Below the pieces are notes generated by a model. It had not been told where the DNA came from and ran no database searches. It saw nothing but the letters and a program-made list of their open reading frames with translations. From assembly GCA_964016885.1 (NCBI GenBank), contig OZ024743.1, positions 346,642,001-346,706,000 of the forward strand: a DNA stretch of 64,000 nucleotides, written 5' to 3'. The position numbers and the translations under genes are program-made. Positions 14,330-52,560 of the stretch are shown in pieces; the first letter of the stretch is position 1; every line of letters begins with the position of its first letter. The DNA comes from Eledone cirrhosa. Taxonomy: Eukaryota.

Positions 14330-14950
14330 AGCGCAGACCTCCATCTCAACTGGATAGCAAGCAGGCCTACACCGCGGAGATGGTAGAGCCCCGACGGAAT
14401 CACCCTCTTTCAATTCGAAGGAGGTAGATCCCTCATCTGGTACGTCAGTTGCTGCAACACGTTGTCCGCCTCCAACTTAGTCGCTTCGGCCACAAACTCC
14501 AGCATCGTAGCCCCACCTCGCAGAAGATAGCAAAATAAACAAATACCGGCTTTCTCCGGCCGCTTCCTCTTTGCACTAGTTGCCGTCGAGACCTCGGGCG
14601 TACTTGGACCCCGTACTGCTGAGCTCCTCCGTAACATCTGAACGTCGGCGGCTCGCCTGAGGAGGGAGCCCCACGAGGTTGGGGGCTGTTGCAGCATGTG
14701 CCACTGGCCATCGTCTGCAGGAATGTTTTTGTCGTCTTGTCCGCGGGGCACAGTCTCCTTCCCCCTTGCTTTAGGCCCAAATACCAATCACGCTCCCCTT
14801 CTCCCCTCCCTTCTCTACTGTGATACACGAGCTCGTGCCATCCTCTCCCAATCCCGTTCTTTTTCTTCTTTCTTTTTCTCTTTTTTCTCTATGTTTCTCT
14901 GTTCCTTTTTTCCTTTTGTTTCCTTTTTTTATTATTGTTGTTATTATAGT
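14330..14950 (+). mobile_element. 3' fragment of a CRE-like (restriction-like endonuclease) non-LTR retrotransposon, decayed
   Basis: Manual translation gives PDGITLFQFEGGRSLIWYVSCCNTLSASNL...FLFALVAVETSGVLGP...RRLA...LAIVCRN. This matches the PDG-xTL...L-WD-TC and ETxGxxG...AIxRGN pattern of CRE-clade RLE domains. Followed by a pyrimidine-rich 3' UTR and a TTA/TTG tail. Confidence 0.7.
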
Positions 14951-15000
14951 TGTCATTGCTGGCCTGGGTATTTGCTGGCCTTGTGCCAAAAGTAGAAACA

Positions 15001-15048
<48 letters not shown>

Positions 15049-15250
15049 GGCGACCTACGTAGTAAATCGTATCATCGTGAGCTCCGCAAAGGTTTGTTAT
15101 TTTCAGTTATTTAAAATTGCCATTCATGGAAATTTTTTATTGTTAACTGTATATAAGTGCACATACATTGATTTCTGAAAAGGACACTCAAAAAGATTGA
15201 GTTCAAAATTTAAACTTTTATAGTTATCAAAAAAATTTCTTTGAAAAATT

Positions 15251-17152
15251 ATGGCTGACTCAGAGTCACTCCTTTCTCACAAACTAACACCTCACACCGA
15301 CACAATCATTGTAAATGTTACTACGTTTGCCAACACTAAAAAAATATAAGCAGTAGCAATATTTTTAATTTGTCTTAGGCAGACATTCATTTCCCGCCAT
15401 TACCAATGACTGCAGGTGTTAAAGCCGCCACCACCACCACCACCGCGAAAACCCCCACCCCCACCACCACCACCGCGAAAACCCCCACCCCCACCACCAC
15501 CACCGCGACAACAGAAACAAAAGAAAAAAAATAGATTAACTCGTGATATCGAAATGAATTCAACCAAAATGAACTCTTCCACACCGAACACCTCTAACGC
15601 CACCACCACCACAACTGAAACTAAAATTAATAATAACAAAAATAACGATAACAACAACAGCAACAATGACATTAAGAAAACCACCCTGAGTTTTGCCAGA
15701 GTAGCAAAACAGTGCGAAGCATTTCAGGTAACTCAGGAGGAATTAGAAGAAGCCAAAAAAATGGTAAAGAAAGATGGGTACAGGGTCAGTCTCACACCTA
15801 ATAAAATGGAGCATCGGCGCCTATGCACGTGTCTTATCGAACAATTAATATAAAATCGCACCGAGTGGAACGCGCAACCGAGTCCCAAATCCAAAAAGCT
15901 TTGGGACATGTGTGGGCAAAAAAAAATACCACATCAGACGTGGGCAGAAGTATGGAACCGTGGACGTGTTCTTTGAAACACCAGAGGAGGCTAGAGAATA
16001 CTCCATGGCCCCATTAAGAAGTGACGACTTCACACTCGTCCCAAGCTATTGTGGCCAGAGACTCGTAAAGATCAGGGTCACCCACGTTCCACCGGCCATC
16101 GAAATTCCCTGGCTAATAGCTGCCGTCCTCGCCGGCATCGAAGCCAACACCAAGATAATAGAAATAGCGAAAGAAAAGCAGGAGAACTGGTCCGGATCTG
16201 GGATGGAGCTCCTGATCCAAGCGGACCAAAAATGCATTGAGGAGATCCCAGAGGTAATAGACCTCACTGACGGCAGCCACCTCACCGTAATTGTCAAGGG
16301 CAGAAGGCCTAGCTGTGTCGTTTGTGGTGAAGGAACCCACCTAAGGGCTTTCTGCCCTCAGGCTAAAAGGATGAGGCCACCTCTCATACCCACCCCAGTG
16401 ACTCAACCAACAACACCACCAACAGCAGAGATGGCAGCAACAACTGTAGCAGCAACAACATAAGCAACTATAACAACAACAACCCCAGCAACAGTAGCAA
16501 AACCAACACCAGCACCACCAGCAAAACCAATCCCACCACCACCCAGCGCTTCAGAACTAGCACCAGCGCCTACACCATCCACCACGCCACAACCAAATCT
16601 AACGCCTGTGGAGGATTTTCCACTCCCCGGCCTATCACAACTGGAGACAGATTGTGACGACGAGGAGTGGGAAATGGTATCAGGAAAAAAGAAAAAAAGA
16701 AACCAAAAAAGAAAAAAATTCTCTTCCATCCCCCTCCAAAAACAAAATACAGAGGAAAACAAATAAATTAACAAACAATAAAGTTAGGACAGATATGCCA
16801 CCATCCACACCAGCATCACCAACCTCATCACCCCAAACACCAACACCATCACCATCATTAACTCCAACACCACCATCACCTACACCACAAAAGTCACCAA
16901 AATGCGAAACAGAAACAAACCCACAACAAACGCAAAAAAAACAAAACAACCAAAACGAAACACACTACACAGCATTAAATTTGAACAACAACCAATTATT
17001 ACACTACATCCAACACAACACCAGCATCACAGAAAAAGACTACACAACAACCCAAAAATTCACACCACCTCCACACATACAAATCACTCGCATCACACAG
17101 AAAACGTATATGACACTAAAATAAAAATTCCCCAAAGACATCGGAGACTTCA
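15251..17152 (+). pseudogene. Disrupted ORF1 of element A
   Basis: ORF pieces 15416-15853, 15912-16463 and 16654-17124 align with element B ORF1 (EELEEAKKMV, RVERATExQIQKALG, LVPSYCGQ, knuckle CVVCGEGTHLRAFC). Frameshifts plus a stop at 16461-16463. Start position is approximate. Confidence 0.85.
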
Positions 17153-19865
17153 TAGACGAGGACCCGGCTACTGGAAGCTAAACGCGTCCTTACTAGCGCG
17201 CAAGGCCTGCAGAGACCGGATTAGCGAACTAGTTAAGCGGGCGTTGACGGGGGCCATCGTCAACAACAAGTGGTGGTTTGCTCTGAAAAGAGCAATTAGA
17301 ATAGAGTCCATTAGGTTTTGTAAGGCTTTAGCAATAGAGAAAAATAGAGCGGAGGGAGAATTAGTTACAAAATTAGACGAGGCGCTTTGCAAAGGCATCG
17401 CGACCGACGTACTTGCAGCGAAATTGACCCTTGACCAATTCTTCAATGCAAAGCACGAAGGCTGCGTTGTCAGAGCTAGGGTGCGTGCTCTCAGACACGA
17501 GGGGACGAAAGCCGTTCAATGGGCCCGAGTGGCGGAGACGCGCCGTGGCAACAAAGCCACGATCCGGTCTTTAGTGGACCACGACGGGCGCATACTACTC
17601 GATCCCGGGCAAATGTGTGAAGCTTTTCAGCGACACTTCGCTCAACTTTTCGGGGGCAGCGGCGGGCCGGATCGAGGGATGGACTTTAGTGTCTACCTCG
17701 ACGGACTGCCGCGGCTCTCGGCCACTGAGGCGGAGTGTTGCGAAAAGCCGATAACAGCCGCTGAAGTACGGGAGGCAATGACTGGCTGCACAAGGGGTAA
17801 ATTGCCTGGTTTGGATGGTCTGCCCTATGAATTTTACGTACAAATGCCAGACTTGTTCGGAGGCCTCTTGGCGGACGTCTACTGCAACTGGCAACAGCAC
17901 GGGAGAAATCCCAGCTCTGTGAGCCCAGGAGCGGTGGCGTTGCTGAGAAAGGATCCGAACAAGGGGGATAACATAGATACGTTTAGGCCCATAACCCTGC
18001 TAAACACAGAGTTCAAGATTTTGGCCAAGGTGCTAGCAAAGAGGTTGGCGCTTGTCGTTGGTGGTCTGGAGGGAGAGGCGCAGATATGCGCCATTCCCGA
18101 CAGATCCATCCACGACAACCTCCACCACATGCGATACATCGTAGAGAGGGTAGCTAGGGAACCTGGCACGGGTGGGTCCTTGATCAATTTAGATCAGTCG
18201 AAAGCTTTCGATAGGGTCGACCATCGTTACCTAGCGGCAGTCCTGAGGGCAGCTGGCTTTGGGCCCGTCTTCAGAGGCTGGATCGCTGCCATGCACAGCG
18301 ACATCTGCACTGTGGTGAGAGTGAACGGTCACCTTTCGGAACCATTCAACATCATGCGCTCGGTCCGCCAAGGATGTCCCCTCTCGTCCCTCTTGTACGT
18401 ATTGACTCTCCAGCCATTACTGCACAAACTGGAGTCGTTGAGGGGCGTCCCGCGCGAACAAGGATGCGGAAGATCCGTGTCAGCATATGCGGACGATGTC
18501 ACCGTAGTGGTGTCGAACGCCAAACACATCGAGGCGATCGGCACTACACTAAGAGAATACGAAGCGGTGACAGGAGCAATGATCAACCAGGAAAAGTCAG
18601 CGGGCCTGCAGCTCGGCGCCTGGAGAGGCAGGTCCATGCCGTCCAACAGCGTCGTCGGGCGCTGGACGGACGGACCAGTTAAATTGCTAGGGGTCTGGTT
18701 CGATCCGGACCTCCATACGGACAAAAACTGGGACGAGGTGACGAGCAGGGTGGCTTCTCTCACCCAGAAATGGGCCGAGAGGAAGCTATCCCTGAAAGGT
18801 CGAGCGGAGGTGGCAAACGTGTACATCGCGTCCGACATCTACTACCGCCTGACCGTCGTACCTTGTCCTAAGCCCCGCCTGGCTGCGCTGGAGCGTTTGC
18901 TCTTTCGCTTTTTGTGGAAGGGACGCGCTCCGATGGTCAGGCGGTCCATCTGCTGTCAACACCCGCTACGTGGAGGGCTGGGCATGCCGTGGCTGATGAT
19001 GCGCAGACACGCGCTCAGGCTACGACATATCCACCTCTTCCTCGACGGTGATCAGGTGTGGTCTCCGTTTGCTAGACACGTCTTTCCCCAGCTCGTGGAG
19101 GGCTGGGCATGCCGTGGCTGATGATGCGCAGACACGCGCTCAGGCTACGACATATCCACCTCTTCCTCGACGGTGATCAGGTGTGGTCTCCATTTGCTAG
19201 ACACGTCTTTCCCCAGCTGCAGTCCTGGGTCAAGCGAAGACCGAGAGGGAGCGGTGGAGGGGAAGAGCGACGACGTACTTGGAGAAACTCTAGGCGTCGA
19301 CGAAAATCAACTAGCCAATCTCTTCGGAAGGACTTTTGGGCCGGGGCCTATGGACAACTTCCAGAAATCCCTGGCCTGGCTGTGCTACCGGGGAGCTTTG
19401 CCAGTTCGGGATAAACTCAACAGGCATGGAGGTGCCGTCAGCCGGGCATGTCCGAGATGCGTGCAGGGCGACGAAACCGTCCTGCACGCACTCGTCCAGG
19501 GTCCGAGCATTGCTGACTTGTGGGTTTATGTCGAACACCTGCTGTCACGTGTAGGACGGATCCAGCTATCAGCTGAGTCCATCGTGAGGATTGCCCCGCC
19601 CTCTTCCTTTAGCCGGGAAGGGCAGGCAATTTTTATCTTTCTGGTGGCCATGGCGAAAGAGATAGTATGGTGGACACGTTTGAAAGGACTGAAGACGAGC
19701 ACTTACCTCTTCGGTGATGCTGTGATTAACTTTTTCAAATTTCATTTGAAAAGCAAAATCAGGGTAGAAAGGGAAGTGCTCTCTTCCCAGCATTTTGTTG
19801 AAAGATGGGTGAGAGAAGCAAGTATGGCCCGAGTGAATGGGCCTACTCTGAGTAAGTGTCTGTAA
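17148..19865 (+). pseudogene. Endonuclease-less, rearranged ORF2 of element A
   Basis: Begins at LHRRGPGYWKLN and retains YADD. Carries a 125-bp duplication (18969-19093 repeated from 19094) and two deletions relative to element B. Confidence 0.92.
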
Positions 19866-20349
19866 ATTAAAGGTGGAAAACTGGGAGAGGGCACTTGCCC
19901 TGGTGGTCAGGGTCACTGTGGTCTTTTAATGGGCTTTCTCCATAAATGTCCCTCGGAAGTCTCCCCCCTATTGGGGAATTTTTCTTTGTTATTTTATTAC
20001 ATCCTCTGTTTTTTTTACACGCAGAAATGCCCATTTGTACCGTCCTGTATTGTCCTGTACTGTCCTTAATGTCTACTTTATGTAAACCCTTGTGGTTAAT
20101 AAAGAAAACATTATTATCATTATTATTATTATTATTGAATGCCATGGTTGACGGAGGCTCGGCTCTGTAAGGTATAGTAATTTTTAACCGTTAAAACAAT
20201 TGTAAATTGTTTAAAACTTGAACCAAATTGTTGATAAAGACACCCTCCTCCTCGTGAGAGGGGTCTTTCTGTCCGTTATTTGGCCCTTCGGGGTTAAATA
20301 ACCAGTTATTGGGGTTTTGTACCCAAAATTTCATTTTAAACAAAAAAAC

Positions 20350-22437
20350 ATGGCTACGAAAAAGAAATTTCATACGTCACTCCCACTCATTCCGTCTTCT
20401 TCTTCCTCAATCATCACTACAGCAGAGAGAAGATTGTCTCTCTCCCTCCCTTCTTTAAATGTGTCTCTCTCCCTCCCTTCTCTTTCGCAAGTGACGAAAG
20501 AAAAGAAAAGTCTCGTGCAAAGCGTGCAAGGTTTCTCCACGACGACGACAGCGACGAAACAGGTGTGCGGGAAATACGAAAACCCAGTTCATTCGTCTGA
20601 CGTCAGGAATAATAGCAGTAGCAGCCGTAATAACAACAGCAACAGTGACAATGAAAACAACAGTAGCAGCCGCAACAGCATCACCAGCAGCATAAACAAC
20701 AACAGCATTAGCAGCAGCAACACCAACAACAACCACAGCAACAGCGGCGGAGGCAGTAGTCGTAGTACCTGCAGCAACAACAAAAGTACCAGCAGCTCTG
20801 ACGACAACAACAACAGCAGAGAAAAACCAATCTCATTTGCAGGTATTGCGAAAAACCTGGAAACAATCCTCATAACAAATGAGGAATTAGAGGAAGCGAA
20901 GAAGATGGTGACAAAGAACGGACACCGAGCAATCTGCAAGGCAGCGAAAAATTTTTTCGAAACCCAAGAGCACTGTACGGTCACGTACCGTACAGTAAGT
21001 ACAAAATCCCGTAGGGTGGAAAGAGCCACAGAGGCCCAAATACAAAAAGCCTTGGGGTCTGTGTGGCAGAGGAAAACGCACATCACCCGAGGCAAAAAAT
21101 ACGCCACCGTAGACGTACTTTTTGCCACACCCCAGGAGGCAAAGGCCCAATCAGTAGTGACCCTAAGGAGCGAGGAAATGGTGTTGGTGCCCTCCTACTG
21201 CGGGCAAAAAATTGTGAGGGTCAAACTGACCCACGTCCCCCCCGGAATGACCCCTTCTTGGCTGGCCGCGTCTGTCCTCGTCGGAATCGAGGACAAAACA
21301 ACTGTACTGCAAGTACAGAAAAAAGTAAGAGAAGATTGGGTCGGCTCCTCCATTGAGATGCTAATCCAAACCAACCAGGAGTGCATCGAAGCTATCCCGG
21401 ATGTGATAGACTTCGATAACGGCACTCAACTGCCCATAAGTGTTGAGGGCAAACGCCCGAAATGCTTTCGCTGTGGATCGAAGACTCACCTCAGGGCCTT
21501 CTGCAACGAGAAGACCCTGAGAAAGGAGAAAACCCCCCTCCTCCCGAATCCGGTTCCACGGCTACCAGCAACAGGACAAGCGGCAACCAGGAACGATAGG
21601 TCCGTGGCACCCATACCCACTCCACGGAAATCAAAGACAGCAGCAGCAGTGGAAATATTAACAACAACAACAGCAATACCAAATGCAGCTGCAACAGAGA
21701 CTCCAGTGCAAACATCACCAACAACAACAAGTGAAAGAGTGGAGCTGGTACCCCTCCCCGACCTTACAGAATCAGACATGGAGTGTGAGGTGGGAGAGGG
21801 ATGGCAAAAGGTCTCAAGAAGGCACAAACGCAGAAGCAGCGCATCGTCGCCTTTGAAAAGGGAGGAAAGAAATGAGAAAAGGGTAAAGTCTACTGCAAAG
21901 AGACCCACAGCAGCAACACCACCAACACCATCACCACCCACACCAGCACCACCATCACCACCGGCGACAACCCCACCGCCAACAACACCTTCAACACCAC
22001 AAGCACCAACATCGCAAACACAACAACAAAACACACACACCCAGCAACAACGACAAGAAAATAGCAGAACCACACCCCACCCCCAGAAAAACAAATGCAC
22101 GGCAATAAACACACACAACAAGAAACTAATGACTTACATAATTGAACACACAGACATTTCACAACAGGACTACATAATACCAGCACCAATCAAAACGCCA
22201 ACTAACATAAGACTGCTAAAAATAGCACAGAAACAATACACAAACATTAAAACGAAATTCCCCAACGCAGTTGGTGATTTCAGGGACCTAGGAGGAACCA
22301 TTAATCGAAGAGTATATTCAGACATTCTCTTAGAAGAGCCGACGACCAGCCGAAGGGACGATTCAACGGTCCCTTCACCAGACGATCAAGTGAAAAGGGA
22401 TGTAAAAACCATCCCTCCTCTACCAAAAATACGGTAA
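20350..22437 (+). CDS. Tx1-type ORF1 (gag-like nucleic-acid chaperone): low-complexity N/S-rich N-terminus, probable RRM-like core, CCHC zinc knuckle, P/T-rich C-terminus
   Basis: Open frame 20317-22437 with first ATG at 20350. Zinc knuckle CFRCGSKTHLRAFC (CX2CX4HX4C). Lies immediately upstream of an EN-RT ORF. Confidence 0.88.
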   Translation: MATKKKFHTSLPLIPSSSSSIITTAERRLSLSLPSLNVSLSLPSLSQVTKEKKSLVQSVQGFSTTTTATKQVCGKYENPVHSSDVRNNSSSSRNNNSNSDNENNSSSRNSITSSINNNSISSSNTNNNHSNSGGGSSRSTCSNNKSTSSSDDNNNSREKPISFAGIAKNLETILITNEELEEAKKMVTKNGHRAICKAAKNFFETQEHCTVTYRTVSTKSRRVERATEAQIQKALGSVWQRKTHITRGKKYATVDVLFATPQEAKAQSVVTLRSEEMVLVPSYCGQKIVRVKLTHVPPGMTPSWLAASVLVGIEDKTTVLQVQKKVREDWVGSSIEMLIQTNQECIEAIPDVIDFDNGTQLPISVEGKRPKCFRCGSKTHLRAFCNEKTLRKEKTPLLPNPVPRLPATGQAATRNDRSVAPIPTPRKSKTAAAVEILTTTTAIPNAAATETPVQTSPTTTSERVELVPLPDLTESDMECEVGEGWQKVSRRHKRRSSASSPLKREERNEKRVKSTAKRPTAATPPTPSPPTPAPPSPPATTPPPTTPSTPQAPTSQTQQQNTHTQQQRQENSRTTPHPQKNKCTAINTHNKKLMTYIIEHTDISQQDYIIPAPIKTPTNIRLLKIAQKQYTNIKTKFPNAVGDFRDLGGTINRRVYSDILLEEPTTSRRDDSTVPSPDDQVKRDVKTIPPLPKIR

Positions 22438-22472
22438 GTGGTCTTTCCCATCGTTTCCACTCTATTTTAAAC

Positions 22473-25400
22473 ATGACCTCACTCAGAATAGGCAGCATAA
22501 ATGCGCGTGGCTTGGGGTCGTCATGGAAGCAGGGTCACCTGCTCAACGACCTCAGGTCACTAAACATAGATGTAGTGGCCATCAGCGAGACCAGAATCTC
22601 CGAAGCACGGGCCTTCGCACCGATCTTCGGCGGCTACGATGTGTACGCATCTCCCAGCCGTCCTGGATCCGGTGGAGGAGTTGCTGTACTTTTTCGGAGA
22701 GGTTTGGATCTCGCCATACGGGCCATCTTCCTGGACCCAGAGGGTAAGCTGGTGGTGCTGGACGTGACCAGCGGAGACGGGCAATCTTTCAGGCTAGTGG
22801 CCGTCTATGCCCCGACAGGAGCAGGGCGGCCTGATTTCTTCCGGCGTCTGGAGACCTTTCTTGGAACGTCCCGCTCTTTAGTGTTAGTGGGCGACTGGAA
22901 CGGGATCTTAGATGCACGCTGGGACTGTGTGGGATTAGCGGATAGGGGTGGAGGGTGCAAAAGCCTCACCAACCTGCTCAGGCGTTTTGAACTGTCTGAC
23001 AGGTACCGATTGGATTTCCCGAATGTGCCAATGTGGACTTGGACAAACCGCATAGGGTCATCCAGATCATATCTAGATAGAGTATTTTGTAGGGAAATAG
23101 ATAGGTCTAGCATAGGCTGTCCACAATTCAAGATAGTCAGCTACACGGACCACAAATTCGTGACCTGTGTGCTTGACTTAGATAGGCTTCATAGACGAGG
23201 ACCCGGCTACTGGAAGCTAAACGCGTCCTTACCAGCGCGCAAGGCCTACAGAGACCGGATTAGCGAACTAGTTAAGCGGGCGTTGACGGGGGCCATCGTC
23301 AACAACAAGTGGTGGTTTGCTCTGAAAAGAGCGATTAGAATAGAATCGATTAGGTTTAGTAAGGCTTTAGCAATAGAGAAAAATAGAGCAGAGGGAGAAC
23401 TAGTTAGAAAATTAGACGAGGCGCTTAGCAAAGGCATTGCGACCGACGTGCTTGCGGCGAAATTGGCCCTTGACCAATTCTTCAATGCAAAGCACGAAGG
23501 CTGCGTTGTCAGAGCTAGGGTGCGTGCTCTCAGACACGAGGGGACGAAAGCCGTTCAATGGGCCCGAGTGGCGGAGGCGCGTCGTGGCAACAAAGCCACG
23601 ATCCGGTCTTTGGTGGACCACGACGGGCGCATGCTACTCGATCCCGGGCAAATGTGTGAAGCTTTTCAGCGACACTTCGCTCAGCTGTTCGGGGGCAGCG
23701 GGGGGCCGGGTAGAGGGATGGACTTTAGTGTCTACCTCGACGGGCTGCCGCGGCTCTCGGCCACTGAGGCGAGGTGTTGCGAAAAGCCGATAACAGCCGC
23801 TGAAGTACGGGAGGCAATGACTGGCTGCACAAGGGGTAAATCGCCTGGTTTGGATGGTCTGCCCTATGAACTTTACGTACAGATGCCAGACTTGTTCGGA
23901 GGCCTCTTGGCGGACGTCTACTGCAACTGGCAACAGAACGGGAGAATTCCCAGTTCTGTGAGCCGAGGAGCGGTGGCACTGCTGAGAAAGGATCCGAACA
24001 AGGGGGATAACATAGACAATTTCCGGCCCATAACTCTGCTAAACACAGAGTTTAAGATTTTGGCCAAGGTGCTAGCAAAGAGGTTGGCGCTTGTCGTTGG
24101 TGGTCTGGTGGGAGAGGCGCAGACATGCGCCATTCCCGACAGATCCATCCACGACAACCTCCACCTCATGCGATACATCGTAGAGAGGGTAGCTAGGGAA
24201 CCTGGCACGGGTGGGTCCTTGATCAATTTAGATCAGTCGAAAGCTTTCGATAGGGTCGACCATCGTTACCTAGCGGCAGTCCTGAGGGCGGCTGGCTTTG
24301 GGCCCGTCTTCAGAGGCTGGATCGCTGCCATGCACAGCGACATCTGCTCTGTGGTGAGAGTGAACGGTCACCTGTCGGAACCGTTCAACATCATGCGCTC
24401 GGTCCGCCAAGGATGTCCCCTCTCGTCCCTCTTGTACGTATTGACTCTCGAGCCATTACTGCACAAACTGGAGACGTTGAGGGGAGTCCCGCGCGAACTA
24501 GGATGCGGAAGATCCGTGTCAGCATATGCGGACGATGTCACCGTAGTGGTGTCGAACGCCAAACACATCGAGGCGATCGGCACTACACTAAGAGAATACG
24601 AAGCGGTGACAGGAGCAATGATCAACCAGGAAAAGTCAGTGGGCCTGCAGCTCGGCACCTGGAGAGGCAGGTCCATGCCGTCCAACAGCGTCGTCGGGCG
24701 CTGGACGGACGGACCGGTTAAATTGCTAGGGGTCTGGTTCGGTCCGGACCTCCAGACGGACAAAAACTGGGACGAGGTGACGAGCAGGGTGGCTTCTCTC
24801 ACCCAGAAATGGGCGGAGAGGAAGCTATCCCTGAAAGGTCGAGCGGAGGTGGCTAACGCGTACATCGCGTCTGTCATCTGCTACCGCCTAACCGTCGTAC
24901 CTTGTCCTAAGCCTCGCCTGACTGCGCTGGAGCGTTTGCTCTTTCGCTTTTTGTGGAAGGGACGTGCTCCGATGGTCAGGCGGTCCATCTGTTGTCAACA
25001 CCCGCTACGTGGAGGGCTGGGCATGCCGTGGCTGATGATGCGCAGGCACGCGCTCAGGCTACGACATCTCCACCTCTTCCTCGACGGTGATCAGGTGTGG
25101 TCGCCGTTTGCTAGACGCGTTTTTCCCCAGCTCGTTTCCTTGACGGAGCTGCAGTCCTGGGTCAAGCGAAGACCGAGAGGGAGCGCCTGGAGACTGGAAT
25201 GTCTTCAGGCGCTCACAGCCCTCGACCAATCGGGCAATGTGATCGGTGGAAACTCCACCTCGGCGTTCTATAGAGGATTAGTGGAGGGGAAGAGCGACGA
25301 CGTACTTGGGGAAACTCTAGGCGTCGACGAAAATCAACTAGCCAATCTCTTCGGAAGAACTTTCGGGCCAGGGCCTATGGACAACTTCCAGAAATCTCTG

Positions 25401-25892
25401 GCCTGGCAGTGCTACCGAGGAGCCTTGCCAGTTCGGGATAAACTCTACAGGCATGGAGGTGCCGTCAGCCGGGCATGTCCGAGATGCGCGCAGGGCGACG
25501 AAACCGTCCTGCACGCACTCGTCCAGTGTCCGAAAATTGCTGACTTGTGGGTTTATGTCGAACACCTGCTGTCGCGTTTAGGACGGATCCGGCTATCATC
25601 TGAGTCCATCGTGATGATTACCCCGCCCTCCTCCTTTAGCCGGGAAGGGCAGGCAGTTTTTATCTGCCTGGTGGCCATGGCGAAAGAGATAGTATGGTGG
25701 ACACGTTTGAAAGGGCTGAAGACGAGCACTTACCTCTTCGGTGATGCTCTGATTGACTTTTTCAAATTTCATTTGAAAAGGAAAATCAGAGTAGAGAGGG
25801 AAGTGCTCTCTTCCCAGCATTTTGTTGAAAGATGGGTGAGAGAAGCAAGAATGGCCCGAGTGAATGGGCCTACTCTGAGCATATATCTGTAA
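22473..25892 (+). CDS. Tx1/L1-clade ORF2: APE endonuclease, reverse transcriptase and C-terminal CCHC finger (1139 aa, uninterrupted)
   Basis: APE motifs SINARGL, SETR, VYAP, GDWN, SYLDRVF, TDHK. Tx1/L1 linker GPGYWKLN. RT motifs SPGLDGLPYE, RPITLLNTEFKILAK, LDQSKAFDRVDH, VRQGCPLS, YADD. C-terminal CPRC-x8-H-x4-C. Confidence 0.97.
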   Translation: MTSLRIGSINARGLGSSWKQGHLLNDLRSLNIDVVAISETRISEARAFAPIFGGYDVYASPSRPGSGGGVAVLFRRGLDLAIRAIFLDPEGKLVVLDVTSGDGQSFRLVAVYAPTGAGRPDFFRRLETFLGTSRSLVLVGDWNGILDARWDCVGLADRGGGCKSLTNLLRRFELSDRYRLDFPNVPMWTWTNRIGSSRSYLDRVFCREIDRSSIGCPQFKIVSYTDHKFVTCVLDLDRLHRRGPGYWKLNASLPARKAYRDRISELVKRALTGAIVNNKWWFALKRAIRIESIRFSKALAIEKNRAEGELVRKLDEALSKGIATDVLAAKLALDQFFNAKHEGCVVRARVRALRHEGTKAVQWARVAEARRGNKATIRSLVDHDGRMLLDPGQMCEAFQRHFAQLFGGSGGPGRGMDFSVYLDGLPRLSATEARCCEKPITAAEVREAMTGCTRGKSPGLDGLPYELYVQMPDLFGGLLADVYCNWQQNGRIPSSVSRGAVALLRKDPNKGDNIDNFRPITLLNTEFKILAKVLAKRLALVVGGLVGEAQTCAIPDRSIHDNLHLMRYIVERVAREPGTGGSLINLDQSKAFDRVDHRYLAAVLRAAGFGPVFRGWIAAMHSDICSVVRVNGHLSEPFNIMRSVRQGCPLSSLLYVLTLEPLLHKLETLRGVPRELGCGRSVSAYADDVTVVVSNAKHIEAIGTTLREYEAVTGAMINQEKSVGLQLGTWRGRSMPSNSVVGRWTDGPVKLLGVWFGPDLQTDKNWDEVTSRVASLTQKWAERKLSLKGRAEVANAYIASVICYRLTVVPCPKPRLTALERLLFRFLWKGRAPMVRRSICCQHPLRGGLGMPWLMMRRHALRLRHLHLFLDGDQVWSPFARRVFPQLVSLTELQSWVKRRPRGSAWRLECLQALTALDQSGNVIGGNSTSAFYRGLVEGKSDDVLGETLGVDENQLANLFGRTFGPGPMDNFQKSLAWQCYRGALPVRDKLYRHGGAVSRACPRCAQGDETVLHALVQCPKIADLWVYVEHLLSRLGRIRLSSESIVMITPPSSFSREGQAVFICLVAMAKEIVWWTRLKGLKTSTYLFGDALIDFFKFHLKRKIRVEREVLSSQHFVERWVREARMARVNGPTLSIYL

Positions 25893-26153
25893 ATTAAAGG
25901 TGGAAAACTGGGAGAGGGCACTTGCCTTGGTGGTCAGGGTCATTGTGGCTTTTTACTGGGCTTTCTCCACAAATGTCCCTCCGAAGTCTCCCCCCTATTG
26001 GGGAATTTTTCATTGTTATTTTCATTGTTATTTTTGTTACATCCTCTGTTTTTGTTTTTTTTACACGCAGAAATGCCCATTTGTACCGTCCTGCATTGTC
26101 CTGCACTGTCCTTAATGTCTACTTTATGTAAACCCTTGTGGTTAATAAAGAAA

Positions 26154-26193
<40 letters not shown>

Positions 26194-27233
26194 TATTCTA
26201 CTGTATATAATATCATGTTTAAATAAAGAAATTGTTTATTCACAATGTGGGGGACAGTTTGATGACTGTTTAGTAAAAGTGCATTGGTGTTCATGTGCCA
26301 AACACCCTAACAACTAAAAACGTATTATTATTAAACCGGCAATATTACGATTACAAGCGAATCAATCAGCCTTTAGTTTATCAGTTGATTATCTAGAAAT
26401 AGCTGTCAACTTTCCTTGATATAACATTATATTTTCTTAAGCGAATACGTTTCTAATAGCGAATATAGTCGTTGTTGCACTATCGTTAAATCAGTTTAAT
26501 TTAGTGAATATATATTTTCACAAATTTTGTTCATATTCTGGTCTCATTAGTGATGCATGCCTTAAGATGGATTCAATTGCCATGTCGAAACACCAGTGAT
26601 CATAGTTTTACAGGACTGCCCTTGAATTAAACAACAAGGTTACAGGCATCCGGAGTTTAGCTCCAGTCATTCTAGCATTAAGCACAGGGGAGTAAGATCA
26701 CAACAATAGCTAGCAGGCTGGTCTCTTGCAGAGATGATTTGAACGCGGACTCAATTTACGTAAACATTGAAAGACAAAGACAAGTTCTAGTACCATATCA
26801 GTAGAATACCCAGAGCATTGGTGCCTGATTAAATATAGATAAATTTGGCAGGCGACTGTTAAATGCATTGAATACGATAATAACACAACATCGATAATTC
26901 TAATGTCTGCCCTTTCAAAACTTGGAGACAATTAACGGCATTAAAATTTATTCATGTGGATTGAAATGCATTAAAAGTGTTATAATCAAAACATACATAT
27001 TTGATTATATATAACGATATCTTAACTTGAATGGATCTGTTATTTTTATCTGAAGACATTTTTTTCCAATTCCACCCTGCCCGTCCCTTCAATTTATCTT
27101 ATTTCTTTCTTTTGATGAAAGACTAGCGTCCGAAACGTTAAGACACTGTTCCTGCTTTTTCAAGTGTTAACCTAATATATTCCTTCCACATACTCTACCG
27201 GTTCTGTTGTTATTTCTGTTTACCTTGTGTTGT

Positions 27234-29688: not shown

Positions 29689-30014
29689 TGGCGGTGGATT
29701 GGCAGTATCGGTAGAGGGTCGGACGCCATGCTTTGACACATAGAGTTACGGCCCTTGCCATTCTGAGTTCAAATCCCGCCGAGGTTAACATTGCCTTTCA
29801 TCCTTATGTGGTCGATAAAATAAAGTACCAGTAATACACTGGGTAATTGCTGGCCTTGTGCCAAAAGGTAGAAACAATTATTATATTACGGACTGAGTTC
29901 AAATCCCGCCGAGGTTAACTTTGCTTTTCATCCTTATGTGGTCGATAAAATACAGTACCAGTAATACACTGGGTAATTGCTGGCCTTGTGCCTAAAGTAG
30001 AAACAATTATTATT
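29689..30014 (+). mobile_element. Dimeric SINE (full plus truncated unit) with a 17-bp target-site duplication
   Basis: TATTATTCGAAAGATGT at 29672-29688 and 30008-30024 flanks both units. Confidence 0.9.
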
Positions 30015-30096
30015 CGAAAGATGTAGTATTAATTATTTGAGGTCGGTACACGAGCATGCTCTGTGTACAAGGACTGAAAACAACAAGAGATTATAT

Positions 30097-49799: not shown

Positions 49800-51150
49800 T
49801 GTGGACTAGCAGTATCGGTAGAGCGTCGGATATTATTTTTTGCAGGATAGTTACGGCTCTTTACGATCTGAGTTGAAATTCAGCTGAGGTTAGCTTTGTC
49901 TTTCGTCCTTACGGGGTCAATAAGTAAAGTACCAGTAATGCACTGGGGTCGATTTAATCGACTTTCCCCTCCCCCCAAATTGCTGGCCTTGTGCCTATAC
50001 TGGAAATCATTAGTATTCAGTAGAACGTCGGTCAACATGCTAAGTGACATATGATTACCTCCCTTTACATTCTGAGTTCATATCCCGCCGAGGTTAGCTT
50101 TGTCTTTCATTCCTGCGGACTCGGTAAAATAAAGTACCAGTATAATCGACTCTCCCGTTCCCCAAAATGTCAGGCTTTGTGCCTAAATCAGAAATCATTG
50201 TTATAGGGCGGTGGATTCGCAGTATCGGACACCATGCTTTGTAGCATAGAGTTATGGCCCTTTACGGCATGTGTTCAAATCCTGCCGAGGTTAACATTGC
50301 CATTCATTCTTAAGGGGTCGATAAAATAAAATACCAGTAACGTACTGGGGTCGATTTAATCATTATTATATTACGGACAAAGGTTAACTTTGCCTTTCAT
50401 CCTTACGGGGTCGATAAAATAAAGTACCAGTAATGCACTGGGTATTTGCTGGCCTTGTGCCTAAAAATAGAAACAATTATTATATTACGGACTGAGGTTA
50501 GCTTTGCCTTTCGTTAAGGCGGTGAATTGGCAGTATCGGTAGAGGGTCGGACGCCATGCTTTGACGCATAGAGTTACGGCCCTTGCCATTCTGAGTTCAA
50601 ATCCCGTCGAGGTTAACTTTGCCTTTCATCCTTACAGGGTCGATAAAATAAGATACCAGTAATACACTGGATATTTGCTGGCCTTGTGCCAAAAGGTAGA
50701 AACAATTATTATATTACGGACTGAGTTCAAATCCCACCGAGGTTAACTTTGCCTTTCATCCTTATGTGGTCGATATAATAAAGTACCAGTAATACACTGG
50801 ATAATTGCTGGCCTTGTGCCAAAAGTAGAAACAATTATTATAGGGCGGTGGATTGGCAGTATCAGGAGGCGTCGGACAACATGCTTCGCTGGATAGTGTT
50901 TCAGCCCTTTACATTCTGAGTTCAAATCCAGCAGTGGTTGACTTTGCCATCCATCCATACGGGGTCGATAAAATAAAGTACCAGTAATGCACTGGGTAAT
51001 TGCTGGCCTTGTGCCTAAGGTAGAAACAATTATAAGGGCGGTGGATTGGCAGTATCGGTAGAGAGTACCATTAACGCACTGGGATCGATATAATCGACTT
51101 TCCCTCACCCATAAAATTGTACGCGTTCTGCGTAAATCAGAAACCTTTAT
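49800..51150 (+). mobile_element. Head-to-tail array of about 8-9 full and truncated tRNA-derived SINEs (Meta/MESC-like core, ATT tail)
   Basis: A box TGGCAGTATCGG, B box GAGTTCAAATCC, core CTTTGCCTTTCATCCTTACGGGGTCGATAAAATAAAGTACCAG, tail GGCCTTGTGCCAAAAGTAGAAACAATTATT. All units are on the same strand. Confidence 0.9.
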
Positions 51151-51265: not shown

Positions 51266-52560
51266 TGGTCATCTTAAGAGTAGTTTGTCTAAAAATTCAT
51301 GGATGGGATCGTCCTAGAAGCAAGATGTCTTGCTGATCTCAGGTCACTAGATATGGATGTGACTGCCGTAATGCGAGACCACGATTTCCTACATGCAAGC
51401 ACTAGACCACATTTTCGATGACTATCAAATCTTCGCATCTCTTAGTCGGCCAGGAATGAGATGTGGGGGTGGAAATGCTGTTTAGGATAGGCCAGCATCT
51501 CGACGTAAGGACGATCTTTCTGAGCCCGGAGGGTGTGTTGGAGGTCCTGAATGTGAACAATAACGAAGATGGTGCATTTAGACTGATGGCCGTCTTCACC
51601 CTGACCAGAGCCGGACAGCCGGATTTTTTGAGGCACGTGGTTGCCATTCTGCAAATGTCCCACCGTTTACTATTAGCGGGAGATTGAATCAGCATCTTAG
51701 ACACATGCAAAGATTGTGTGGGAATAGCTGCTAGGAGCGGGGTGTGCAAAAGCCTCATGTATCTGATCAGCCACTCACAACTGTCTGACAGGTACCGACT
51801 AGGTTTCCATAATGCGCCAGTGTGGATCTGGTCCAACTGCGTAGAGTCATCTACTAGGTTATAGATTTTTTTTTTTTTTTGTTAGATCTATAGATAAGTA
51901 TATTATAGTTTGTCCACATTTCCGAACGGTGCCGTATTCAGATCACAATTTTTTTACCTGCATATTTGACCTAGTTAGAACATATAGACTAGGACCTGGT
52001 TACTTAAAGTTTAACGCGTCATTCCCGGCACGTAAAGCCTACATTGACCGGGCCGTCACTTTCGTTATGTGTAAGTTGACACGGTGTTCGTCAATAACAG
52101 GTGATGTGGTGCTCTCAAGAGAGAAGTTAGAATAGTTGCCAAAGGTTTCACTAAAGAAGTAGCGTTAGATAAAAATAAATGTGAGTGGTGGCTAAATTAT
52201 AGGCAGCAATGCGAAGTGGCATTGCAACAGATGTGTTAGCGGTGAGATTAGCATTAGACAATTTCATGAATGCAAAACACAAAAGTTGCGTATCCAGAGC
52301 AAAGGCGCGTGCTCTAAGAAAAGAGGGAATGGAAGCTGGTCGATGGGCTCGTGTAGTGGAGGCACACTGTGGTAACAAAGCGATGATTCGTTCTTTGGCG
52401 AACTGAGACGAATGCTTAATAAATGGTTCCTAACACGTCAGCCTACCGCGTTTCTCGCCAGCCGATTCTAAGTGCTACGAAAGGCAGATCACATCAGATG
52501 AGATTCGGGATAACCTGGCTGGTTGCACGAGGCACAATTCACCCGGTTTGAATATTCCTA
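51266..52560 (+). pseudogene. Old, decayed Tx1 ORF2 relic (endonuclease to start of RT)
   Basis: Fragments VRTIFLSPEG, FRLMAVF, LLLAGD, YSDHNFFTCIFDL, LGPGYLKFNAS and GIATDVLAVRLALD are colinear with the element B ORF2 N-terminus. Many stops and frameshifts. Confidence 0.9.

Follow-up and report, generated by a model that had tools for sequence, protein, structure and literature searches.

Human LINE-1 (L1) inserts at a promiscuous target (TTTT/AA), is poly(A)-tailed and encodes an ORF1 of the Transposase_22 type. For Tx1 elements, target preference has been taken to mean that over 20% of flanks contain the target, and Kibi, Koshi and crocodilian Tx1 families target (TC)n, (TTC)n and (TTCC/TTTC)n microsatellites (PMC4494074). 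Type I ORF1s, with RRM-like domains and a CCHC knuckle and not Transposase_22, have been called consistent with Tx1 in non-mammalian animals (PMC5203782), and the Tx1L endonuclease is described as having a longer hairpin loop (PMC1950540). Plant L1s have a Type I ORF1 as well. TAA repeats are targeted by Dong, of the R4 clade (PMC3812793), and the uniform 5' junctions of R2 have been explained by annealing of the cDNA to co-transcribed target sequence (PMC3774820). Stringent LINE/SINE pairs have a common 3' stem-loop (PMC3747384), L1-clade pairs with shared tails are described for maize/sorghum and Chlamydomonas, and SINEU, which ends in poly(A), is linked to Tx1-Mar by a shared target (PMC4494074). 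Retrotransposon hotspots have been reported in Octopus vulgaris without a mechanism (PMC13282606).

The window analysed here, a 64,000-nucleotide stretch of Eledone cirrhosa contig OZ024743.1, holds two members of a young, high-copy L1/Tx1-type LINE family with copies nearly all within ATT triplet repeats. An ATT-targeting Tx1 family was not found in print; the supplements of PMC4494074 may list further Tx1 targets.

Layout of the locus and its two LINEs

As the original prediction had it, four retroelements lie on one strand at the places foreseen: a CRE-like fragment, a SINE 3' end and the LINE elements A and B (Table 1). Both Tx1 heads have the same register, ATT|G at 15049 and at 20137, and at both 3' ends AATAAA-GAAA(A/T)C leads directly into (ATT)n, with poly(A) absent. 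Only TTA/ATT repeats were said to separate the elements, which is true of two junctions; the third, from CRE to SINE, is the CRE's own 3' end. The sequence TTATTATTG..GTCATT (~14929-14958) at this third junction is present in 8/19 other CRE copies and, since it recurs at their 3' ends, is CRE element sequence and not spacer. The CRE fragment is no part of the proposed (ATT)n stack. Forty scored CRE copies gave 79-83% against the window fragment (self match excluded), and RPDG..D..EERK..KY motifs were found in other CRE copies. The insertion point of B would be the internal C^ATT at 20118/20119, on grounds that include B's uninterrupted 3' run. A locus-spanning contig and an empty allele were sought in the contigs of four runs, and neither was found.

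Table 1. Features of the retroelement stack (window coordinates)
Position	Strand	Feature
14340..14958	+	CRE-like non-LTR fragment, decayed, 5'-truncated (C-terminal restriction-like endonuclease region and 3' UTR)
14959..15000	+	SINE 3' remnant, only ~42 bp, with hairpin GGC-CTTGT-GCC at 14977-14987
15001..15048	+	(ATT)16 run, target of element A
15049..20109	+	Element A: LINE, A-type 5'UTR/ORF1 (frameshifted), RT present
20110..20136	+	ATTATTATC-(ATT)6 junction between A and B
20137..26155	+	Element B: full-length intact LINE
20350..22437	+	B ORF1, 695 aa; CCHC knuckle at residue 372
22473..25892	+	B ORF2, 1139 aa: apurinic-type endonuclease (N, E, D, D, H motifs present), RT (YADD), zf-RVT
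26131..26149	+	B 3' hairpin AACC-CTTGT-GGTT, then AATAAA (26144-26149)
26156..26197	+	(ATT)11-ACT-(ATT)2 run, rest of target 3' of B

Element A is a broken sister of the intact two-ORF LINE B. A deletion of ~824 nt near 17145-17151 removes the ORF1 end and the endonuclease. The ORF1 of A is also frameshifted, and 125 bp are duplicated in tandem within A at 18969-19218; its 3' hairpin lies at 20085-20097 and its AATAAA at 20098-20103. The two elements are 96% identical in ORF2 and 38% identical in ORF1, with a 5'UTR/ORF1 of different type. B diverges by 0.4-0.6% from several dispersed copies.

The ORF2 protein, with Pfam domains Exo_endo_phos, RVT_1 and zf-RVT, has an apurinic-type endonuclease at its N-terminus, then RT, and a zinc knuckle at its C-terminus, as is usual in the L1 group, and is nearest to L1. 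Its best match among solved structures, across endonuclease and RT, is human LINE-1 ORF2p (E=1.6e-52, versus E=1e-21 for R2). The central region of B ORF1 resembles ZCCHC3-type RNA-binding domains plus CCHC, with atlas look-alikes that score 0.91-0.93 and carry zf-CCHC and ZCCHC3 RNA-binding domains, and Pfam gave no significant match to B ORF1, Transposase_22 included, so that B ORF1 is of the Type I found in Tx1. The B endonuclease loop aligns without gaps to the human L1 endonuclease and, in a weak alignment, is two residues short of a Tx1L graft. The homologues recovered bear no informative names; the Tx1 label fits the domain content.

ATT junctions and arrays across the genome

Copy numbers were obtained by exact pattern matching, and the shared A/B 3' end gave 6,477 exact matches genome-wide. 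In a sample of 100 copies, taken by an exact 3' 28-mer and covering the initial 58 Mb of one contig, 59/63 full-length heads come after three or more perfect ATT units, always in one register. Directly before 57 of these 63 stands (ATT)5. This is far more than chance would give, since a perfect (ATT)5 ends at only some 1 in 10,000 positions of the two strands (566,209 matches in 2 x 2.996 Gb). Search patterns that lacked ATT recovered the (ATT)n|G junction at 30/30 B heads and 30/30 A heads, and TTATTATTATT|G was present at 91/96 B heads among the matches listed. At the 3' end, at least five perfect ATT units follow 76/100 copies and at least three follow 81/100, with poly(A) at 0/100; two sister families have (ATT)5 at 26/30 and 15/30 of their 3' ends. 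Measured against the 20% of flanks used for Tx1 elements, the target is thus present at 59/63 heads and 76/100 3' ends. These head junctions and 3' ends support the predicted (ATT)n targeting genome-wide, and the tabulation of flanks and junctions that had been proposed as a check returned ATT before most full-length heads and no poly(A) in the sample.

The specificity is not strict, because of 29 5'-truncated copies just 14 show ATTATTATT where the 5' end meets the flank, and at least four lie at sites with just 1-2 ATT units. This count left out 8/37 rows, namely chimeras or internal deletions (L130, L167, L174, L176, L183) and duplicates (L148, L190, L191). (TTC)n adjoins only 2/29 truncated copies and one 3' end.

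Stacking is frequent, as the next family head directly follows 22/100 sampled copies, and 28/99 neighbour gaps are at most 12 kb, 27 of them same-strand (expected, 2). Tandem duplication was rejected as the chief source of these arrays, since tandem neighbours are mostly no nearer to one another than to dispersed copies. Mosaics nevertheless exist: some array members are mosaic or have duplicated junctions, with L218 resembling the downstream L217 over about 1,500 columns, L207 and L208 having a common flank, and L189-L191 likewise among these cases. Tandems that combine A and B are frequent, and neighbours within a tandem are in most cases of unequal age. Stacked neighbours appear to be mostly independent insertions, and the building of tandem arrays by family insertions is borne out genome-wide. 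That the stack is same-strand proved true within the family only, as antisense Dong/R4-like elements, which carry an RPDL..D..K..KY motif and have R2 as their best match, adjoin 51/100 sampled family copies and often share their runs. Dong truncations (11/15) also point to use of the same ATT runs by this unrelated enzyme.

A candidate SINE partner and a proposed insertion mechanism

The SINE 3' end has 132,507 exact matches in the genome and has the 3' CUUGU hairpin and the ^ATTAT insertion site in common with the LINE. Comparison of SINE ends with four Tx1-type ends gave p <=0.002 in 14/16 cases, versus p >=0.04 in 12/12 comparisons with Dong and CRE ends. Hairpin pairing was kept in 24/27 cells, with two pairs changing on both sides, in a stem of only 3-4 bp and nine hand-picked rows. 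The shared hairpin and site suggest that, among the LINE families surveyed in this genome, the LINE lineage likely mobilises the SINE in trans. Only 1/30 SINE insertions has at least five ATT units, short sites being used, and the target-site duplications are 11-20 bp long and end at arbitrary bases. As a SINE with the same junction signature is so rarely in arrays, nick preference alone is insufficient to explain array choice.

The best explanation, which we consider probable, is fixed-register insertion into (ATT)n through the endonuclease at ^ATTAT together with pairing of the RNA with the repeat at both ends. Its observed part consists of domain content, copy numbers, flanks, register, absent poly(A) and arrays of mostly independent copies. 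The family likely cuts ATT repeats by its own endonuclease, which would nick the bottom strand opposite ^ATTAT, often at a run edge after C. ORF2p would recognise the CUUGU-loop hairpin and reverse transcribe from ..GAAA(U/A)C^AUU on the nicked (AAT)n primer, and pairing with that primer at C^AUU could account for the copying of no poly(A). Full-length RNA would start within the upstream repeat, giving an (AUU)n leader through which the cDNA end could anneal to the target, yielding the uniform ATT|G junction. Each insertion would split and partly duplicate the run and leave a new C^ATTATT at its 3' end, open to later landings by the same family, sister families, Dong/R4-like elements and SINEs.

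The leader is suggested by a run before the head that depends on head type. The median 5' run is 51 nt for A versus 26 nt for B (p=1e-4), with 3' runs alike at 34.5 and 37 nt (p=0.89). The 5' runs measure 53-99 nt in six A copies that lie 1.7-1.9% from the nearest relative; in five B copies, at 1.7-2.1%, they measure 20-33 nt, and the 3' runs are equal. The family RNA thus likely carries a piece of ATT repeat at its front. It counts against the leader that the six A copies of lowest age are closely related to one another. A search of Rfam returned 0 matches (E up to 0.1), and neither the A nor the B head matched a simple descriptor of HDV ribozymes. An alternative that we regard as unlikely leaves everything to the endonuclease, which would nick both (ATT)n strands at equivalent steps ~18-24 bp apart, with RNA starting at G and the flanking ATT being target, duplication and later slippage. 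Such a scheme would predict a fixed duplication length, in line with the floor near 6 units and mode of 7-8 in the B 5' run, and there is one TpA step per unit on both strands, in the observed register. The B 5' run also lengthens with age (rho 0.38, p=0.02), the difference from A reaches only p=0.065 for older B copies, and the ORF1 difference could alter duplication length, counting against a leader. The endonuclease-only scheme is harder to reconcile with 5' runs so different between A and B at nearly identical ORF2 and equal 3' runs, or with the arbitrary ends of the SINE duplications.

Where the family has inserted into imperfect sites, the target-site duplication begins at the first ATT and no repeats are added. 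The duplication follows at once in the 3' flank of L152 (16 bp), L134, L147 and L133, L162 and L127 are followed by a single ATT, and the 3' flank of L218/L219 begins GTT. These copies show that the 3' run consists chiefly of the target and its duplication and not of RNA tail, and they speak against the form of the original prediction, in which a long RNA (AUU)n tail is copied into every insertion and creates new targets; despite the 3' ATT units and absent poly(A) of the sample, we consider this form very improbable. No unique-sequence duplication outside runs was detected in 63 full-length copies (4/63 matches were repeat or element sequence), so the arrays predate insertion, and we discarded the idea of an element that brings flanking ATT of its own, on both sides, into unique sequence. 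The predicted regeneration of a landing pad stands, and the ATT run as the element's own tail does not, being mostly target DNA. The pad is renewed by splitting and duplication of the target plus the terminal C of the element, which makes a new C^ATTAT site, and the 5' leader probably adds to this. Hardly credible at all is insertion at common short ATTAT sites without real targeting, followed by survival in repeat-rich dead zones and arrays via unequal crossing-over, which fits the short SINE sites and the mosaic or duplicated-junction members named above and is contradicted by LINE fragments of SINE size that still lie mostly within long ATT runs, the fixed register, the frequent A-B mixed tandems and the unequal ages of most neighbours.

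A broader form of the preferred two-end pairing model is offered tentatively, as somewhat doubtful in its entirety: an animal L1/Tx1-type (ATT)n specialist that has a heritable head-specific leader, shares its target with Dong/R4 on the opposite strand and serves the SINE as autonomous partner, the SINE being confined to single ATTAT sites for want of the longer repeat guide.

Significance and comparison with known systems

(ATT)n is a new target for microsatellite-specific L1/Tx1-type elements, its targeting could concretely explain why retrotransposons pile up in this genome, and the LINE lineage may be what drives a SINE family of very large size. The family is also a natural experiment on how LINEs choose their targets. 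Should a single ORF2p direct the LINE to long ATT arrays and the SINE to lone ATTAT sites, with head types that differ in their 5' runs, RNA-DNA pairing would be separable from endonuclease specificity, and tests are feasible because intact young copies exist (13/39 sampled B).

The closest solved structure to ORF2 over endonuclease and RT is human LINE-1 ORF2p (PDB 9k6g, 8sxt), and the family differs from human L1 in target choice, tail and ORF1 type alike. The Kibi, Koshi and crocodilian families (PMC4494074) are likewise APE-type L1/Tx1-group LINEs in microsatellites, with Kibi and Koshi in (TC)n or (TTC)n, whereas the junctions here are ATT. Dong targets the same microsatellite, and Dong/R4-like families of this genome share the runs with A/B copies, but Dong has a C-terminal restriction-like endonuclease and opposite-strand insertion; the two ORFs and N-terminal apurinic-type endonuclease of A/B rule out their assignment to Dong/R4. 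R2 (PMC3774820) is a precedent for the leader-driven uniform junctions proposed for A/B, with an HDV-like ribozyme and a 28S rDNA target, whereas here no ribozyme was found and the leader is predicted only. Like the known stringent pairs, the SINE and LINE have 3'-terminal sequence with a stem-loop, and an insertion signature, in common; unlike SINEU/Tx1-Mar and the plant and Chlamydomonas pairs, the candidate pair here involves an animal L1/Tx1-type lineage without poly(A).

Elements A and B and their neighbours

The window (G000:C4:346642001-346706000, within a 3.0-Gb genome) contains two head-to-tail Tx1-like LINEs, A and B. The set of CRE, Dong-R4 and RTE elements (PMC10294476), together with a remark in the original prediction, points to a cephalopod source. 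The ORF2 of B carries the domains Exo_endo_phos, RVT_1 and zf-RVT, and its closest solved structure is human L1 ORF2p (E=1.6e-52). With a full-length A copy as reference, window A is missing ~824 nt, including the endonuclease. Full-length A and B have ORF2 in common (96% of residues, 97% in the endonuclease) and differ in their 5'UTRs and ORF1s (38% for ORF1), with the switch located near the end of ORF1. A and B are two head types sharing one body. Low-depth contigs near-identical to B were also seen in runs X1 and X6, which are labelled as two other organisms.

Features of the window, in window coordinates
Feature	Position	Strand	Description
CRE-SINE join	14950-14965		fixed CRE-like 3' end joined to truncated SINE
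Element A	15049-20109	+	3' part 96% and 93% to B; ORF1 only 63%
Element B	20137-26155	+	ORF1 695 aa with CCHC knuckle; ORF2 1139 aa
SINE cluster	29700-30020		head-to-tail, joined via ATTATTAT; ~16-bp duplication around cluster
SINE cluster	50200-51100		head-to-tail, joined via ATTATTAT
Old fragment	51304-52398		distant LINE relative, 66% identity to start of B's ORF2

The original prediction placed A and B in a stack of four elements, together with a CRE-like fragment and a SINE 3' end. The CRE-like fragment is indeed real, and old (copies 79-83% alike), but the ATT-like stretch beyond it is the CRE's own 3' end. As a truncated SINE also lies directly 3' of the CRE end in 6/19 other CRE copies, the CRE-SINE junction is a separate phenomenon and not part of such a stack. 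In these six (L229, L233, L234, L235, L239 and L240), as in the window, the fixed CRE-like 3' end joins SINEs truncated at varied points; the joins suggest template-switch chimeras or CRE insertion into a SINE.

Genome-wide targeting of (ATT)n

Exact-pattern matching across the whole genome located the common 3' end 6,477 times, the B head 2,413 times and the A head 2,123 times; the reversed-pattern control of each gave 0 matches. In samples of heads, listed heads and 3' ends that overlap and are not independent, (ATT)n|G (the junction of a repeat run with the element's first G) precedes 30/30 B and 30/30 A head loci, and TTATTATTATT|G occurs at 91 of the 96 listed B heads. The 3'-end sample comprised the first 100 matches on one contig (C1), fetched with both flanks, 63 of which are full-length copies. 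At least three perfect in-register ATT units precede 59 of these 63 heads, and at least five precede 57. On the other side, the 3' end is followed by at least three ATT units in 81/100 copies and at least five in 76/100, and poly(A) was absent from all 100. As the genome holds 122,748 perfect ATT runs of at least five units (566,209 minus 443,461), the chance of (ATT)5 preceding a head is ~1 in 10,000. The 3' ends in (ATT)n rather than poly(A) thus hold across this sample, and the tabulated flanks strongly support that (ATT)n targeting by this putative L1/Tx1-type family is real. Of two sister families, with 1,570 and 1,299 exact matches to their ends genome-wide, the first has (ATT)5 no more than 60 nt from its 3' end at 26/30 loci and the second at 15/30.

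The further proposal that the element's own tail recreates its target has to be recast in the light of imperfect sites. At L152, a 16-bp duplication begins at ATTATT with no unit added; L134 lies within (ACT)n and L147 within a minisatellite with one ATT; L133 shows two units and then GTT repeats; and full-length L162 and L127 have one ATT unit each. As such copies lack added repeats, the element ends in ..GAAA(T/A/G)C, and the sequence beyond is mostly target DNA. An element that brought in ATT at each of its ends when entering unique sequence would be expected to leave unique duplications outside the runs, none of which was genuine; matches outside the runs in 4/63 copies (0.9 for shuffled pairs) were all repeat or element sequence.

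The ATT arrays thus predate insertion. Antisense elements whose endonuclease is unrelated and restriction-like (best match R2; Dong/R4-like by motif) bear this out, as they use the arrays too. These abut (ATT)n at 30/30 3' ends and 11/15 truncation points, and adjoin 51/100 sampled LINE copies (within 250 nt on the 5' side). At least three such families use the LINE's (ATT)n runs (L091-L120, L125, L133, L164), and one Dong/R4-like family has 7,257 exact 3'-end matches. At L128, L163, L176, L192, L198 and L202, a truncated Dong-like element meets a likewise truncated LINE head-to-head, with no intervening ATT run.

The predicted tandem arrays are present: 28/99 neighbour gaps are at most 12 kb, 27 of them same-strand, versus 2 expected, and 22/100 3' ends run straight into another family head. 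As ~12% of all (ATT)5 positions sit in runs flanking this family (hand arithmetic), stacking is ~2x the simple expectation and targeting alone suffices as mechanism, perhaps together with some bias towards the C^ATTATT at each copy's own 3' end (^, insertion point). In the window, a young B most likely entered an internal C^ATT of an older A's 3' run. Array neighbours are mostly as divergent as dispersed copies; L214, L215 and L216 stand at 2.8, 0.8 and 2.9%. Some are mosaics: L218 is near-identical to downstream L217 across ~1,500 columns with a 42-bp junction repeated, as unequal exchange or annealing of cDNA to a copy already in place would give. The arrays at L217-L219 (G000:C1 ~57.085-57.105 Mb) and L205-L209 (~55.42-55.46 Mb) show duplicated junctions, and their heads derive from the resident copy downstream.

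Probable SINE partner and putative leader

The SINE 3' end has 132,507 exact matches genome-wide. Among 30 loci, ATTA follows in 27, exact 11-20 bp duplications start from that ATT in 15 (12 of them after a C), and just one lies at five or more ATT units. The last 30 nt resemble LINE ends, most closely those of the sister families, and SINE and LINE ends both carry a small CUUGU-loop hairpin whose stem varies on both sides between families in a hand-picked set of rows. From these ends we infer that this LINE lineage probably mobilises the SINE. An antisense element at L195, presumably an RTE-like LINE from its motifs, shows no such hairpin end in the first 400 nt of its 3' UTR. The LINE's preference for long runs may reflect longer RNA-primer pairing, consistent with the L1 priming model as outlined in PMC3649969.

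At the 5' junction, ATTATTATT is found in 63/63 full-length heads versus 14/29 truncated copies, a gap that later deletions can partly explain. The median 5' run is 51 nt in A versus 26 nt in B (p=1e-4), and the 3' run does not differ (34.5 versus 37 nt, p=0.89). In copies 1.7-2.1% from their nearest copy, six A have 5' runs of 53-99 nt and five B of 20-33 nt. Because ORF2 is common to A and B while the 5' runs differ, these lengths point to a co-transcribed (AUU)n leader, its length possibly fixed by head type. Against this, the B run lengthens with age (rho 0.38), older B differ from A only at p=0.065, young A copies are close relatives of each other, and ORF1 also differs between A and B. 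A truncated copy, L213, has a 13-nt inverted piece at its 5' end, as in L1 twin priming.

Comparison with known systems

An amphioxus HERO element targets (ATT)n. Described targets of Tx1 families include (TC)n, (TTC)n and (TTCC/TTTC)n (PMC4494074), Dong targets TAA repeats (PMC3812793), and some HERO families target microsatellites (PMC4640811). No ATT-targeting Tx1/L1 family, or such a SINE partnership, was found in the full-text literature searched, a scope outside which lie Repbase, Dfam and subscription journals. The O. vulgaris annotation described in PMC13282606 gives no target analysis for its 13 recently active L1-Tx1 and 5 Dong-R4 families; a relative of the present family may therefore be among those on record. 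Microsatellite targeting has precedents; the extra weight of this family would lie in its likely SINE partnership and putative head-specific leader. Such a leader would liken the family to R2, whose RNA, according to PMC3774820, carries upstream target sequence.
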